Program-made: the position numbers and the translations under genes
In this document: in pieces, positions 21,908 to 27,377 of the stretch
Layout: the number at the start of each line of letters is the position of its first letter
How positions within the stretch are numbered: the first letter of the stretch is position 1
Assembly (NCBI RefSeq): GCF_013167455.1
Contig: NZ_CP038328.1
DNA: 64,000 nucleotides
From: Escherichia coli O157:H7
GTDB lineage: Bacteria > Pseudomonadota > Gammaproteobacteria > Enterobacterales > Enterobacteriaceae
Reading direction: 5' to 3' (one strand)
The notes under the pieces: generated by a model
The model's input: only the letters and a program-made list of their open reading frames with translations
Told to the model about the DNA's origin: nothing
Database searches by the model: none

Positions 21908-24639
21908 CGCATCTGGAACTGGTTCCCGTCCCGCCTGTCGCGCAACTGGCGGGCGTGAGCCAGCATTATGGAAAAACCGTTGCGCTGAACAATATCACAC
22001 TCGATATTCCGGCCCGCTGTATGGTCGGGCTGATTGGTCCGGATGGCGTCGGGAAGTCGAGTTTATTGTCATTGATTTCCGGTGCTCGTGTCATTGAGCA
22101 GGGCAATGTGATCGTGCTGGGCGGCGATATGCGCGACCCGAAGCATCGCCGCGACGTCTGCCCGCGCATCGCCTGGATGCCGCAGGGGCTGGGCAAAAAC
22201 CTCTACCACACCTTGTCGGTGTATGAAAACGTCGATTTTTTCGCTCGCCTGTTCGGTCACGACAAAGCGGAGCGGGAAGTGCGAATCAATGAGCTGCTGA
22301 CCAGCACCGGGTTAGCACCGTTTCGCGATCGTCCGGCAGGGAAACTCTCCGGCGGGATGAAGCAAAAACTGGGGCTGTGCTGTGCGTTAATCCACGACCC
22401 GGAACTGTTGATTCTTGATGAGCCTACGACGGGGGTTGACCCGCTCTCCCGCGCCCAGTTCTGGGATCTGATCGACAGTATTCGCCAGCGGCAGAGCAAT
22501 ATGAGCGTTCTGGTCGCCACGGCCTATATGGAAGAGGCGGAACGCTTCGACTGGTTGGTGGCGATGAATGCCGGAGAAGTGTTGGCAACTGGCAGCGCCG
22601 AAGAGCTGCGGCAGCAAACGCAAAGCGCCACGCTGGAAGAAGCATTTATAAATCTGTTACCGCAAGCGCAACGCCAGGCGCATCAGGCGGTAGTGATCCC
22701 ACCATATCAACCTGAAAACGCAGAGATTGCCATCGAAGCGCGCGATCTGACCATGCGTTTTGGTTCCTTCGTTGCCGTTGATCACGTCAATTTCCGCATT
22801 CCACGCGGGGAGATTTTTGGTTTTCTTGGTTCGAACGGCTGCGGTAAATCCACCACCATGAAAATGCTTACCGGATTGCTGCCCGCCAGCGAAGGTGAGG
22901 CGTGGCTGTTCGGGCAACCGGTTGATCCAAAAGATATCGATACTCGCCGTCGGGTGGGCTATATGTCGCAGGCGTTTTCGCTCTATAACGAGCTCACCGT
23001 GCGGCAAAACCTTGAGTTACATGCCCGTTTGTTTCACATCCCGGAAGCGGAAATTCCCGCAAGAGTGGCTGAAATGAGCGAGCGTTTTAAGCTCAACGAC
23101 GTTGAAGATGTTCTGCCGGAGTCATTGCCGCTCGGCATTCGCCAGCGGCTTTCGCTGGCGGTGGCGGTGATTCATCGCCCGGAAATGTTAATCCTCGATG
23201 AACCTACTTCTGGCGTCGATCCGGTGGCGAGGGATATGTTCTGGCAGTTGATGGTCGATCTCTCGCGCCAGGACAAAGTGACTATCTTCATCTCCACCCA
23301 CTTTATGAACGAAGCGGAACGCTGCGACCGTATCTCTCTGATGCACGCCGGAAAAGTGCTCGCCAGCGGTACACCGCAGGAACTGGTTGAGAAACGCGGA
23401 GCCGCCAGTCTGGAAGAGGCATTTATCGCCTATTTGCAGGAAGCGGCAGGACAGAGCAACGAAGCCGAAGCGCCTCCCGTGATACACGACACCACACACG
23501 CGCCGCGCCAGGGATTTAGCCTGCGCCGTCTGTTTAGCTACAGCCGCCGCGAAGCGCTGGAACTGCGACGCGATCCGGTACGTTCGACGCTGGCGCTGAT
23601 GGGAACAGTGATCCTGATGCTGATAATGGGTTACGGCATCAGTATGGATGTGGAAAACCTGCGCTTTGCGGTGCTTGACCGCGACCAGACCGTCAGTAGC
23701 CAGGCGTGGACGCTCAATCTCTCCGGTTCCCGTTACTTTATCGAACAGCCGCTGCTTACCAGTTATGACGAGCTTGATCGTCGGATGCGTGCGGGCGATA
23801 TCACGGTGGCAATTGAGATCCCGCCCAATTTCGGGCGCGATATCGCGCGTGGTACGCCTGTGGAACTCGGTGTCTGGATCGACGGTGCGATGCCGAGCCG
23901 CGCCGAAACTGTAAAAGGTTACGTGCAGGCCATGCACCAGAGCTGGCTACAGGATGTGGCGAGCCGACAATCCACACCCTCCAGCCAAAGCGGGCTGATG
24001 AATATTGAGACGCGTTATCGCTATAACCCGGACGTAAAAAGCCTGCCAGCGATTGTTCCGGCGGTGATCCCGCTTCTGCTGATGATGATCCCGTCAATGC
24101 TAAGCGCCCTTAGCGTGGTGCGGGAAAAAGAGCTAGGGTCGATTATCAACCTTTACGTGACCCCCACCACCCGTAGCGAATTTTTGCTTGGCAAACAGCT
24201 GCCGTACATCGCGCTGGGGATGCTGAACTTTTTCCTGCTCTGCGGCCTGTCGGTGTTTGTGTTTGGCGTACCGCATAAAGGCAGTTTCCTGACGCTCACC
24301 CTGGCGGCGCTGCTGTATATCATCATCGCCACCGGAATGGGGCTGCTGATCTCCACCTTTATGAAAAGCCAGATTGCCGCCATTTTCGGTACGGCGATTA
24401 TCACGTTGATCCCGGCGACACAGTTTTCCGGGATGATCGATCCGGTAGCTTCGCTGGAAGGGCCGGGACGTTGGATCGGCGAGGTTTACCCGACCAGTCA
24501 TTTTCTGACTATCGCCCGCGGGACGTTCTCGAAAGCGCTGGATCTGACTGATTTGTGGCAACTTTTTATCCCGTTGCTGATAGCCATACCGCTGGTGATG
24601 GGCTTAAGCATCCTGCTGCTGAAAAAACAGGAGGGATGA
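21904..24639 (+). CDS. rbbA: Ribosome-associated ATPase RbbA: tandem ABC ATPase domains fused to an ABC-2 permease domain
   Basis: 911 aa; two Walker A motifs ([18 protein letters not shown]), two LSGG signature motifs, C-terminal 6-TM permease. Confidence 0.9.
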
Positions 24640-25763
24640 TGCGCCATTTACGCAATATTTTTAATCTGGGTATCAAAGAGTTGCGCAGTCTACTCGGTGA
24701 TAAAGCGATGCTGACATTGATTGTCTTCTCGTTTACGGTGTCGGTGTATTCGTCAGCGACCGTCACGCCAGGATCGTTGAACCTGGCACCGATCGCCATT
24801 GCCGATATGGATCAATCGCAGTTATCGAACCGGATCGTTAACAGCTTCTATCGCCCGTGGTTTTTGCCACCGGAGATGATCACCGCCGATGAGATGGATG
24901 CCGGACTGGACGCCGGGCGTTATACCTTTGCGATAAATATTCCGCCTAATTTTCAGCGTGATGTCCTCGCCGGACGCCAGCCAGATATTCAGGTGAACGT
25001 CGATGCCACGCGCATGAGCCAGGCATTTACCGGCAATGGGTATATCCAGAATATTATCAACGGTGAAGTGAACAGCTTTGTCGCGCGCTACCGTGATAAC
25101 AGCGAACCGTTGGTATCGCTGGAAACCCGGATGCGCTTTAACCCGAACCTTGATCCCGCGTGGTTTGGCGGGGTGATGGCGATCATCAACAACATTACCA
25201 TGCTGGCGATTGTATTGACCGGATCGGCGCTGATCCGCGAGCGTGAACACGGCACGGTGGAACACTTACTGGTGATGCCGATAACGCCGTTTGAGATCAT
25301 GATGGCGAAGATCTGGTCGATGGGGTTGGTGGTGCTGGTGGTATCGGGATTATCACTGGTGCTGATGGTAAAAGGCGTGTTGGGCGTACCGATTGAAGGC
25401 TCGATCCCGCTGTTTATGCTGGGCGTGGCGCTTAGTCTGTTTGCCACCACGTCAATCGGCATTTTTATGGGGACAATAGCGCGTTCAATGCCGCAACTGG
25501 GGCTGCTGGTGATTCTGGTGCTGCTGCCGCTGCAAATGCTTTCCGGTGGTTCCACGCCGCGCGAAAGTATGCCGCAGATGGTGCAGGACATTATGCTGAT
25601 CATGCCGACGACACACTTTGTTAGCCTCGCGCAGGCCATTCTCTACCGTGGTGCCGGATTCGAAATCGTCTGGCCGCAGTTCCTGACGCTGATGGCAATT
25701 GGCGGCGCGTTTTTCACCATTGCGCTGCTGCGATTCAGGAAGACGATTGGGACAATGGCGTAA
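24636..25763 (+). CDS. yhhJ: ABC-2 family transporter permease
   Basis: ORF frame 24555..25763; start at ATG 24636 overlapping the rbbA stop (ATGA), giving 375 aa; polytopic membrane protein. Confidence 0.85.
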
Positions 25764-25775
25764 GGAAGGGAAACT

Positions 25776-25825
25776 TGACTTCATACTGTGATGTCATACT
25801 ATTGATGTCATAAAGTGAAGTCATA
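25776..25825 (+). promoter_or_regulatory. Putative promoter/operator of the hicAB-like operon: four spaced 10-bp repeats
   Basis: TGACTTCATA (25776), TGATGTCATA (25789), TGATGTCATA (25803), TGAAGTCATA (25816), spaced 13-14 bp. Outer copies are mutually palindromic in their core (TGACTTCA / TGAAGTCA). SD aaggac follows at 25824-25829. Confidence 0.5.
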
Positions 25826-25835
25826 AGGACATGCC

Positions 25836-26111
25836 ATGAGAACCAAGGTACAGGCTTTACGGAAGAAACAAAAAAATACATTGGATCAAATATTTAAAAC
25901 TCCTGTTCCTCAAGGGATCAAGTGGTCTGATATAGAGTCACTGGTTAAAGCATTAGGCGGAGAAATTAAGGAAGGAAGAGGTTCGCGTTGTAAGCTCATA
26001 CTAAATATGAGCGTTGCGTGTTTCCATCGGCCTCATCCGTCGCCAGATACCGATAAAGGCGCTGTAGAAAGCGTGCGTGACTGGTTACTAAGTATAGGGG
26101 TAAAACCATGA
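25836..26111 (+). CDS. HicA-like type II toxin (predicted mRNA interferase)
   Basis: 91 aa; C-terminal GRGSRCKLILNMSVACFHRPHPSPDTDKGAVESVRDWL resembles the HicA/YcfA KGSHH...HP core; 4-nt overlap with the downstream gene. Confidence 0.6.
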   Translation: MRTKVQALRKKQKNTLDQIFKTPVPQGIKWSDIESLVKALGGEIKEGRGSRCKLILNMSVACFHRPHPSPDTDKGAVESVRDWLLSIGVKP

Positions 26112-26467
26112 TCAAACTGAAGACGCCAAACTCTATGGAGATTGCCGGGCAACCTGCTGTTATCACTTACGTGCCAGAACTGAATGCATTTCGTGGCAAA
26201 TTCCTGGGCTTGTCAGGTTATTGTGATTTTGTCTCTGACAGCATTCAGGGGCTGCAAAAAGAAGGGGAACTTTCCCTGCGAGAGTATCTTGAGGATTGTA
26301 AAGCTGCGGGTATTGAGCCGTATGCGCGTACAGAAAAGATTAAGACCTTTACGTTACGCTATCCAGAATCGCTGAGTGAACGCCTTAATAATGCGGCTGC
26401 GCAGCAACAAGTCTCTGTTAATACCTATATTATTGAAACACTGAATGAGCGTTTGAATCATTTATAA
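26108..26467 (+). CDS. HicB-like antitoxin with C-terminal ribbon-helix-helix-like DNA-binding segment
   Basis: 119 aa; N-terminal HicB-like region (PAVITYVPELNAFRGKFLGLSGYCDF); C-terminal ESLSERLNNAAAQQQVSVNTYIIETLNERL typical of RHH/CopG. Confidence 0.6.
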   Translation: MIKLKTPNSMEIAGQPAVITYVPELNAFRGKFLGLSGYCDFVSDSIQGLQKEGELSLREYLEDCKAAGIEPYARTEKIKTFTLRYPESLSERLNNAAAQQQVSVNTYIIETLNERLNHL

Positions 26468-26469
26468 CT

Positions 26470-26506
26470 TATAGCGGCCCAACAATTTCTGTTGCGCCGC
26501 TATATT
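26470..26506 (+). terminator. Rho-independent terminator after hicB-like gene
   Basis: tatagcggc-ccaacaatttctgtt-gcgccgctata followed by tttttgtgg. Confidence 0.7.
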
Positions 26507-26516
26507 TTTGTGGCTC

Positions 26517-27377
26517 TTAAGATGCCTTTCTAACCAACCGATGCCCCTCATTCATCATCAGGATTTTGCTATACACATCTTCCTCGACGGCGTTTTTTGC
26601 TGATGCCATGACTCGTGCCAGATTCGCCTCGTTGTGATTATTCACATACGCTTTGCCGACGGCGGTGATAAACGCTTTGCGCAGATCGCTGGCGATATTT
26701 ACTTTAGCGACGCGATAATTAACAAAGCTGCGTAATATCTCCGGGGCGATACCGGAGCCGCCGTGAATAACCAACGGCACCGGACAGACTTCGGCAATGC
26801 GCTTCAGCAGGGGGATATCGATACGCGGTATATCGTCCAGGCCATGAACGTTGCCAATAGAAACTGCCAGCATGTCGCAACCGGTACGCTCGACAAAGGT
26901 CTTCACCTTTTCCGGTTCCGTTTTGCAATCGGCTTCGCTGACGTGATCATCTTCTTTGCCGAGAATCGCCCCCAGCTCCGCTTCAACCGGTACGCCATAG
27001 GATTTACAGAAATCGACAGCTTCCTGGGTGAAAGCGATATTCTCTTCAAAAGAGAATGCGGCACCGTCAATCATGACCGAGGTAAAGCCCGCGCGCACCG
27101 CCTGTTTAACATCCTCCTGGGTTTTCCCGTGATCCAGATGAAGACTGACCGGAACATCCATTTTATCGGCGTGACGTTTCACGATTTCATAAATGTAATC
27201 GTATCCCGAGAGTTGTGCATTGGTTGGCGCAATCTGAATGAAGTTGGGTAATCCCGAACGCTCAATAGCGTTTAAAATTGAAATTGTCGTCTCCAGATTG
27301 GTGGTATTAAATGCGCCCGCTAATACCCGTTTTTCCTGAATGCGGTCGAGCAGTATCCGTCCATTAACTAATGGCAT
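26517..27377 (-). CDS. Class II ketose-bisphosphate aldolase (GatY/KbaY/FbaA family)
   Basis: 286 aa; metal-ligand motifs LHLDHG and VIHGGSG typical of class II aldolases. Confidence 0.8.
   Translation of the reverse strand: MPLVNGRILLDRIQEKRVLAGAFNTTNLETTISILNAIERSGLPNFIQIAPTNAQLSGYDYIYEIVKRHADKMDVPVSLHLDHGKTQEDVKQAVRAGFTSVMIDGAAFSFEENIAFTQEAVDFCKSYGVPVEAELGAILGKEDDHVSEADCKTEPEKVKTFVERTGCDMLAVSIGNVHGLDDIPRIDIPLLKRIAEVCPVPLVIHGGSGIAPEILRSFVNYRVAKVNIASDLRKAFITAVGKAYVNNHNEANLARVMASAKNAVEEDVYSKILMMNEGHRLVRKAS

Follow-up and report, generated by a model that had tools for sequence, protein, structure and literature searches.

A probable class 4 hicAB cassette of Escherichia coli O157:H7 with a putative repeat operator and a HicA-like toxin carrying arginine at the catalytic histidine position

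A hicAB-like gene pair

The window analysed here, a 64,000-nucleotide stretch of the Escherichia coli O157:H7 contig NZ_CP038328.1, contains a pair of small genes resembling the hicAB toxin-antitoxin (TA) operons, a hicA-like toxin gene followed by a hicB antitoxin gene (Table 1). The two genes overlap by 4 nt (ATGA), and a Shine-Dalgarno sequence, AGGA, is located at 25826-25829, 6 nt 5' of the first ATG. Over 25700-26520 the sequence agrees at 100% identity with chromosomes of E. coli O157:H7, for example that of EDL933. RefSeq names the two products "type II toxin-antitoxin system HicA family toxin" and "HicB family antitoxin".

Table 1. Positions of the genes, codons, putative regulatory sites and allelic differences discussed in the text. 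Coordinates refer to the window unless another locus is named.
Feature	Position	Strand	Remarks
Sigma-70-like promoter, TTGACT-16 nt-TACTAT	25775-25802	+	consensus scan, 9/12 matches
Putative operator site 1, TGACTTCATA	25776-25785	+	overlaps -35-like TTGACT (25775-25780)
Putative operator site 2, TGATGTCATA	25789-25798	+	in promoter spacer, reaching into -10-like TACTAT (25797-25802)
Putative operator site 3, TGATGTCATA	25803-25812	+	right after -10-like hexamer, over expected transcription start (~25809)
Putative operator site 4, TGAAGTCATA	25816-25825	+	abuts Shine-Dalgarno AGGA
hicA-like toxin gene	25836-26111	+	91 aa, ATG start; RefSeq WP_001259386.1
Codon 51 (Arg)	25986-25988	+	
Codon 64 (His)	26025-26027	+	
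Codon 67 (His)	26034-26036	+	
hicB antitoxin gene	26108-26467	+	119 aa, ATG start; RefSeq WP_000593555.1
Likely terminator	26470-26510		hairpin 26470-26504, U-run 26506-26510; 3' of hicB
yhhJ/nikR junction	25763/25764 boundary; L010 8530-8745; L009		
Differences in second E. coli allele	25789-25802, 25839-25841; L009 3990-4050		

The 91-aa protein matches the Pfam family HicA_toxin (PF07927; COG1724) over residues 30-80 (E 1.1e-8, 35.4 bits) and the PHROGs family phrog_8887, annotated as "toxin" (E 7.9e-26). A profile built from 32 homologues aligned with solved HicAs in hhalign with a probability of 93% (E 3e-7), and the HicA of Burkholderia pseudomallei aligns with this family profile. Against the PDB, the profile gave one weak HicA match (9svk, E 0.4), which was used for alignment only. 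An AlphaFold2 model calculated from the 32-homologue alignment (pLDDT 94.6) consists of N-terminal helices at residues 2-6 and 10-19, followed by a helix (30-39), three strands (43-46, 51-56 and 59-64) and a last helix (74-86). According to this model, the protein has the alpha1-beta1-beta2-beta3-alpha2 fold of HicA toxins, resembling a dsRNA-binding domain, behind two extra helices. In Foldseek comparisons the target-normalised TM (TMt) was 0.73 for 6hpb_A (E. coli), 0.66 for 6g26_F (B. pseudomallei) and 0.62 for 1whz (Thermus thermophilus).

The extra helices form an N-terminal extension that lies outside the Pfam domain and is predicted with high confidence over residues 2-19. An exhaustive profile search at E up to 1e-10 found at least 979 clusters of homologues at 50% identity. 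All residue counts given below derive from the 149 best aligned stretches of that search, belonging to 148 proteins and sharing at most 50% identity with one another; in 134 of these 149 representatives the extension can be aligned. Several database records, among them ones from Pectobacterium, Leminorella and some E. coli, give homologues of the 91-aa protein the legacy misannotation "hexulose-6-phosphate synthase", and one HicB homologue is misnamed "DNA repair protein".

The 119-aa protein matches Pfam HicB (PF05534) over residues 60-112 (E 3.5e-15) and the PHROGs family phrog_9151, "HicB-like antitoxin", over residues 8-118 (E 6e-13). Its tail gives weak matches to the Pfam ribbon-helix-helix (RHH) families Arc and CopG, the protein also matches phrog_582, "Arc-like repressor" (E 1.3e-6), and the HicB family profile matches Arc (E 0.015) and AmrZ (E 0.025). 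The AlphaFold2 model (pLDDT 83) has a beta-rich N-terminal domain, possibly the partial RNase H-like fold by which HicBs bind HicA, with strands at residues 9-12, 15-22, 27-32 and 41-43, followed by a helix at 46-67 and, in the tail, a ribbon segment followed by helices 87-99 and 104-118. The best PDB matches of the model were the HicBs of B. pseudomallei (probability 1.00), E. coli and Yersinia pestis (TMt 0.58 over 64 columns) together with TTHA0281, at E-values of only 0.009-0.3, and the tail superimposes on the Arc repressor 1par_A with a TMt of 0.70.

An earlier note on this DNA, made from the sequence alone, had described two open reading frames (ORFs) of 91 and 119 aa with a 4-nt overlap, the first HicA-like with an N-terminal extension beyond the size of minimal HicAs and the second HicB-like with an RHH-like tail. 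The coordinates and the ATGA overlap are as claimed, both Pfam families were recovered in the profile check that the note had proposed, and the extension and the RHH-like tail are borne out by the domain boundaries, the Arc-like profile matches and the predicted helices.

Relation to known HicAB systems

The gene pair shares several features with the HicAB systems of B. pseudomallei (6G26, 4C26) and Y. pestis (HicA3-HicB3, 4P78). Both have an RHH-type HicB and the same order of toxin before antitoxin, and both combine a small alpha-beta-beta-beta-alpha toxin, a HicB with a neutralising N-terminus and a C-terminal RHH, and an operator flanking or overlapping the promoter, as is predicted here. 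Their toxins have 59-66 aa and the motif G-S-H (H24 and H28, respectively), whereas the toxin of the window has 91 aa, two extra helices and G-S-R. The antitoxin of the window is in turn shorter, 119 aa against approximately 135, and its gene overlaps hicA, unlike in Y. pestis, where hicA3 and hicB3 are separated by 174 bp. The putative operator consists of four 8-bp pseudo-palindromes spaced by 13-14 bp, whereas the known ones have two 15-bp inverted repeats (PMC11594946).

The HicAB system of E. coli K-12 (b4532/b1438, 6HPB) is a member of the same superfamily with its genes in the same order, and its toxin gives the highest TMt among the HicA structures (root mean square deviation 2.4 over 58 columns). 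It differs in having a HicB with a helix-turn-helix domain and an operon with two promoters and a CRP-S site, and its locus is distinct from the one described here. O157:H7 carries both the K-12-type hicAB and the hicAB of the window. The reported induction of O157:H7 hicA/hicB in bovine faeces and rumen content concerns the K-12-type locus b4532/b1438 (Z2281), not the locus of the window (PMC5854682, PMC8524897).

The module corresponds to class 4 of the scheme of Gerdes (2024), which is characterised by an RHH HicB. One HicB listed there, PIA10431.1, is near-identical to that of the window, and its gene likewise overlaps hicA by 4 nt (Table S1); a HicA from an E. coli plasmid, UIV62394.1, has 92 aa and the same GSR and HxPHP motifs. 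The class 4 HicAs were found to split into two clusters. The catalogue is bioinformatic only and describes no operator, and the words "histidine" and "catalytic" are absent from its text. The profile and fold matches, the RefSeq names and the class 4 listing support the HicA/HicB reading of the earlier note. Being annotated in RefSeq and catalogued, the module is already known as a prediction, and its existence is not where the interest lies.

A putative repeat operator in front of hicA

The promoter region had been described in the earlier note as holding four copies of TGAWGTCATA at 13-14 bp intervals. The array of four and its spacing hold (start-to-start distances of 13, 14 and 13 bp), and the copies at 25789, 25803 and 25816 are exact, but the leftmost copy at 25776, TGACTTCATA, has two mismatches to this motif and fits only TGAnnTCATA. 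The latter is the better consensus, because the core of the 25776 copy, TGACTTCA, is the reverse complement of TGAAGTCA. Judged from these copies, the real repeat unit is the pseudo-palindrome TGA-nn-TCA with TA behind it. The plus strand of the window has four TGAnnTCATA, each of them within 25776-25825, while the shorter TGAnnTCA occurs 15 times in the whole window. In 300 simulated windows (first-order Markov) at most two TGAnnTCA fell within a 50-bp span, compared to the four observed; the repeat cluster is beyond chance.

We compared seven further loci encoding homologues 55-81% identical, from Serratia, Xenorhabdus, Dickeya, Leminorella, an Enterobacteriaceae contig (L007), a metagenomic contig and an alphaproteobacterial contig. 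The pairing of hicA with an overlapping PF05534 hicB is kept in all seven, and the neighbouring genes differ in each. In the six enterobacterial loci, TGAnnTCA sites are located at fixed distances from the hicA start amid unrelated flanks, where one such site per 4 kb is expected by chance. All six have a pair of sites 13 bp apart at approximately -33 and -20, often in the form of an inverted pair TGACTTCA...TGAAGTCA, and five of the six have a site at approximately -60 that usually reads TTGACTTCAT and therefore doubles as the -35 box. E. coli, Dickeya and L007 have this TTGACTTCAT site at about -60; Leminorella and locus L008 have it as a pair. Four of those five loci have a further site 13 bp upstream of the -60 site, at about -73 (-70 in Leminorella), and the Xenorhabdus locus has no exact distal TGAnnTCA site. 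E. coli lacks the -73 site because the stop codon of the upstream gene yhhJ occupies this position and leaves no room.

Projected onto this arrangement, sites 3 and 4 of Table 1 are the first and second members of the conserved proximal pair, while site 2 is specific to E. coli and part of a 14-bp unit that is absent from a three-repeat allele described below. The general layout is therefore a -33/-20 pair with one or two sites at -60/-73, and the four evenly spaced copies are an E. coli feature. Promoter-like hexamers read from the orthologous sequences lie in the same place, with TTGACT or TTGATC, a spacer of 17 nt and GATAAT, TATTAT or CATAAT. From the aligned loci, the recurrence of the sites across lineages is far beyond chance, and comparison of the six lineages lends support to an operator function of the repeats.

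Short arrays of pseudo-palindromic boxes, such as the met-boxes of MetJ, are typical of RHH operators. The boxes are spaced by 11 bp in Arc and 8 bp in MetJ operators, different from the 13-14 bp observed here. The tail of the window HicB aligns with Arc residues 5-47, and in contrast to the Arc/MetJ-type repressors its RHH is fused to a predicted toxin-neutralising domain. The ribbon K79-T80-F81-T82-L83-R84-Y85 can be aligned with that of Arc and shows little or no variation across the enterobacterial HicBs, and T80, T82 and R84 stand at the alignment positions of Arc Q9, N11 and R13, the base-contacting residues of Arc. The alphaproteobacterial homologue differs in both respects: its ribbon reads KMLVRAT, and the repeat upstream of it is another one (TAGCGC...GCGCTATCGT, in two copies at a distance of 36 bp), a single case that would fit co-variation of ribbon and operator. 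The alphaproteobacterial cassette (L006 1139-1193, 1452-1778) adjoins a resolvase gene.

The HicBs characterised so far recognise palindromic operators within the promoters of their own operons (PMC11594946, PMC10865869), and by analogy the HicB of the window would bind these sites. Alternatively, the repeats might serve another regulator, or slippage within a short tandem array might have produced them. The copy number differs within E. coli, four against three, by exactly one 14-bp unit, and the array is therefore prone to unequal exchange. Neither possibility accounts well for an 8-bp core that, in six other lineages, stays at a constant distance from the start of hicA while the intervening sequence and the flanks differ, that travels with the cassette and not with the host locus, and that co-occurs with an invariant HicB ribbon. 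A CRP or CRP-S site, as in the P1 promoter of K-12 hicAB, was considered and rejected, as the second half-site of TGTGATGTCATACTAT is poor (TGTGA-N6-ACTAT against the consensus TGTGA-N6-TCACA), and no Rfam family matched the region 25400-26800 at E up to 1. We consider it very improbable that the repeats are anything other than the HicB operator.

Arginine at the position of the catalytic histidine

The HicAs studied so far need the histidine of a G-S-H motif at the start of beta2, namely H23 in E. coli, H24 in B. pseudomallei, H28 in Y. pestis, H36 in Streptococcus pneumoniae and H24 in Neisseria gonorrhoeae (PMC11594946, PMC12297915). In the toxin of the window this residue aligns with Arg51, the first residue of the predicted beta2, within the motif G49-S50-R51. 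R51 is invariant in the 32 homologues; among the 149 representatives residue 51 is Arg in 143 and the motif GSR is present in 138. By these alignments, the His-to-Arg change is a property of the clade and no private mutation.

Other residues around this position are also strongly conserved. G49, two residues before the catalytic position and equivalent to Gly22 of the B. pseudomallei and N. gonorrhoeae toxins, is invariant in the 32 homologues and kept in 146 of the 149 representatives, and two histidines further on, His64 and His67, are kept in 145 and 144, respectively. His67 aligns with His40 of B. pseudomallei HicA. In the gonococcal toxin, His40 is spatially near the catalytic His24, yet dispensable (PMC12297915). 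Canonical HicAs have no equivalent of His64, and Thr or Val takes its place in the alignment. Since a turn of only two residues connects the strands 51-56 and 59-64, we infer from the DSSP string of the predicted model that residue 51 and residue 64, at the end of beta3, are cross-strand neighbours. In the few members of the clade where position 51 is A, S or M, both H64 and H67 are retained, and no clear compensatory pattern between positions 51 and 64 was seen among these few exceptions.

We speculate that the active site of the clade has been rebuilt and not lost, the catalytic imidazole having moved to the neighbouring strand, and that the clade is active. Whether the toxin of the window is an active RNase with such a rebuilt site is in our judgement evenly balanced. 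The wider proposal, of a large HicA clade with a rebuilt active site in which any catalysis would proceed via His64 and His67, and with a conserved two-helix N-terminal extension, is tentative and falls just short of even odds. If true, the clade could differ in its cleavage chemistry or RNA target from the HicAs studied so far. With the canonical catalytic histidine missing, the toxin is properly termed "HicA-like" as long as no activity has been demonstrated.

Some HicAs with published data were considered as members of the clade and rejected. The hicA of Erwinia amylovora, for which a test showed no toxicity, is of a different type with a 59/136-aa pair, and the HicAs of Pseudomonas aeruginosa, N. 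gonorrhoeae and Sinorhizobium meliloti all have the canonical G-S-H. Literature searches on the HicA catalytic histidine or arginine, and on hicAB in combination with yhhJ, returned nothing relevant.

Distribution and a likely natural toxin knockout

The module was found in 2073 of 5426 complete E. coli genomes (approximately 38%), always on the chromosome and with 95-100% identity. Approximately 1285 of these genomes have the O157-type upstream region. A second allele, present in approximately 809 genomes including NCTC11129 (763 of them with at least 99% identity over the 91-nt diagnostic query), has one 14-bp repeat unit fewer, three instead of four, and reads ATG-TAA, with a stop at hicA codon 2. 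All 24 nucleotide differences between the alleles are found within the first 160 nt of hicA (14 synonymous codon differences, six conservative and one nonsense), and hicB is identical over 360 of 360 nt. This pattern suggests that the second allele is a mosaic formed by recombination, in which the toxin was knocked out recently.

Outside E. coli, homologues approximately 50% identical are encoded on plasmids of Piscirickettsia, rhizobia, Legionella, Vibrio and others, and in phages of Ralstonia and Burkholderia, among them Ralstonia phage Dina and its relatives. The distribution of the module is patchy and mobile-like. Only five Escherichia records in PLSDB match, two of which are mislabelled chromosomes, and because of this small number we take the hicAB of IncI2 and IncX4 plasmids to be another clade.

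These observations bear on the possibility that the module is degenerate or domesticated, the HicA-like protein being a non-cleaving RNA-binding partner or co-regulator and the pair an autoregulated transcription factor. Such a module could dispense with the essential histidine, replaced here by R51 and in a few clade members by A, S or M. It would likewise agree with the nonsense codon at hicA position 2 in about 800 E. coli genomes that have an identical hicB, and with an O157 context free of defence islands and mobile elements. In contrast, the conservation of H64, H67, G49 and S50 across at least 979 clusters is unexpected for a dead enzyme, hicA is always coupled to an overlapping hicB in the loci examined, and the clade is found on plasmids and in phages, the classic habitat of active TA modules. 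Loss of the toxin with retention of the antitoxin is moreover the decay path expected of a functional TA module. We therefore regard degeneration as improbable and prefer to view the pair as a TA cassette.

Genomic setting

The cassette is located between yhhJ (stop codon 25761-25763), the last gene of the ATP-binding cassette (ABC) exporter cluster yhiI-rbbA-yhhJ, and a convergent gene for a class II aldolase (26517-27377, minus strand). The aldolase gene opens an island encoding a phosphotransferase system (PTS), an FGGY-family sugar kinase and a GntR regulator, which is followed by nikR of the nik operon. The homology of O157 with K-12 stops precisely at the stop codon of yhhJ (25763/25764 boundary), and the module thus sits at the edge of a variable segment, as the earlier note had proposed. 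Three arrangements were found between yhhJ and nikR: rhsB-yhhH-yrhC-yhhI in K-12, hicAB alone in NCTC11129, and hicAB together with the PTS/aldolase/FGGY-kinase/GntR island in O157. The yhhJ/nikR junction is a replacement hot spot. The hicAB pair also adjoins nikR in the Enterobacteriaceae contig L007.

A mechanically called yhhJ ORF at 24555-25763 has a GTG start at 24555, encodes 402 aa and overlaps rbbA by 85 nt. RefSeq places the start later, at the rbbA stop codon, giving 374 aa; the difference is trivial, and the long ORF is not to be taken as the gene.

The hairpin that follows hicB has an interrupted 14-bp stem and a folding energy of -21 kcal/mol (z = -4.4; none of 200 shuffles folded as well), and is likely a terminator. 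Being located between two convergent genes, it may serve both hicB and the aldolase gene. A simple terminator scanner missed it owing to the interruption of the stem; the two terminators which that scanner did call lie inside coding sequence and were disregarded.

No defence genes and no mobile-element context were seen among the annotated neighbours in O157. This is relevant to the possibility that the main role of the module is abortive-infection defence against phages and not addiction or stabilisation, with the repeats serving only as an autoregulatory switch. It has been suggested that HicA domains serve as defence toxins (PMC10865869), and the occurrence of 50%-identical homologues in phage Dina and related phages and on many plasmids, as well as the patchy distribution within E. 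coli, would agree with such a role. On the other hand, there was no match to any PADLOC model, and what surrounds the cassette is an ABC exporter, a sugar island of the PTS type and the nik operon. A defence role is possible but, with no PADLOC match and no defence genes nearby, unsupported here, and we regard it as rather unlikely to be the main one. It concerns the role of the module and not its molecular identity, and is compatible with the interpretation as an autoregulated hicAB cassette.

A probable autoregulated class 4 hicAB cassette

Taken together, we consider it highly probable that the pair is an autoregulated hicAB cassette of class 4 in the scheme of Gerdes (2024). Several points weigh against this interpretation. 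The defining catalytic feature of HicA is absent, and the toxin is dispensable, given the stop at codon 2 of hicA in about 800 E. coli genomes. The 13-14 bp spacing of the sites is not a whole number of helical turns. The 91-aa protein matches no NCBIfam or PADLOC model and finds no solved HicA directly in a sequence search of the PDB; the 119-aa protein likewise matched neither NCBIfam nor PADLOC (the latter scanned at E up to 1 for both proteins). In Foldseek the HicA matches of the toxin model all have E above 0.1 and are outranked by unrelated small proteins, and the E-values of the HicB model are weak, both as expected for such small size, the toxin domain having only about 60 residues. 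Finally, a literature search for experiments on any member of the clade found none.

The mechanism can be outlined by analogy with the characterised HicAB systems of E. coli K-12, Y. pestis (HicA3B3), B. pseudomallei and S. pneumoniae. HicB would dimerise via its ribbon-helix-helix tail and bind the TGAnnTCA pseudo-palindromes over the -35 box, the spacer and -10 box, the transcription start and the leader, and would thereby repress its own operon. Its N-terminal domain would cover the RNA-binding face of the 91-aa toxin and so neutralise it, and toxin set free would act on RNA, leading to growth arrest.

As one more predicted chromosomal TA cassette, the locus itself matters little. For readers of the O157 literature, it is a reminder that the published hicAB expression data concern the K-12-type locus. 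What makes the finding of interest is the His-to-Arg clade, together with the conservation of the operator architecture and the natural knockout allele. The comparison provides an operator model with TGAnnTCA boxes at -60, -33 and -20 across Enterobacterales, and the four-repeat intact and three-repeat nonsense alleles are ready-made isogenic material for addressing the role of the toxin in vivo. A whole clade of HicAs without the histidine that the field regards as the catalytic hallmark would, in turn, allow a simple mutagenesis test of the HicA mechanism.

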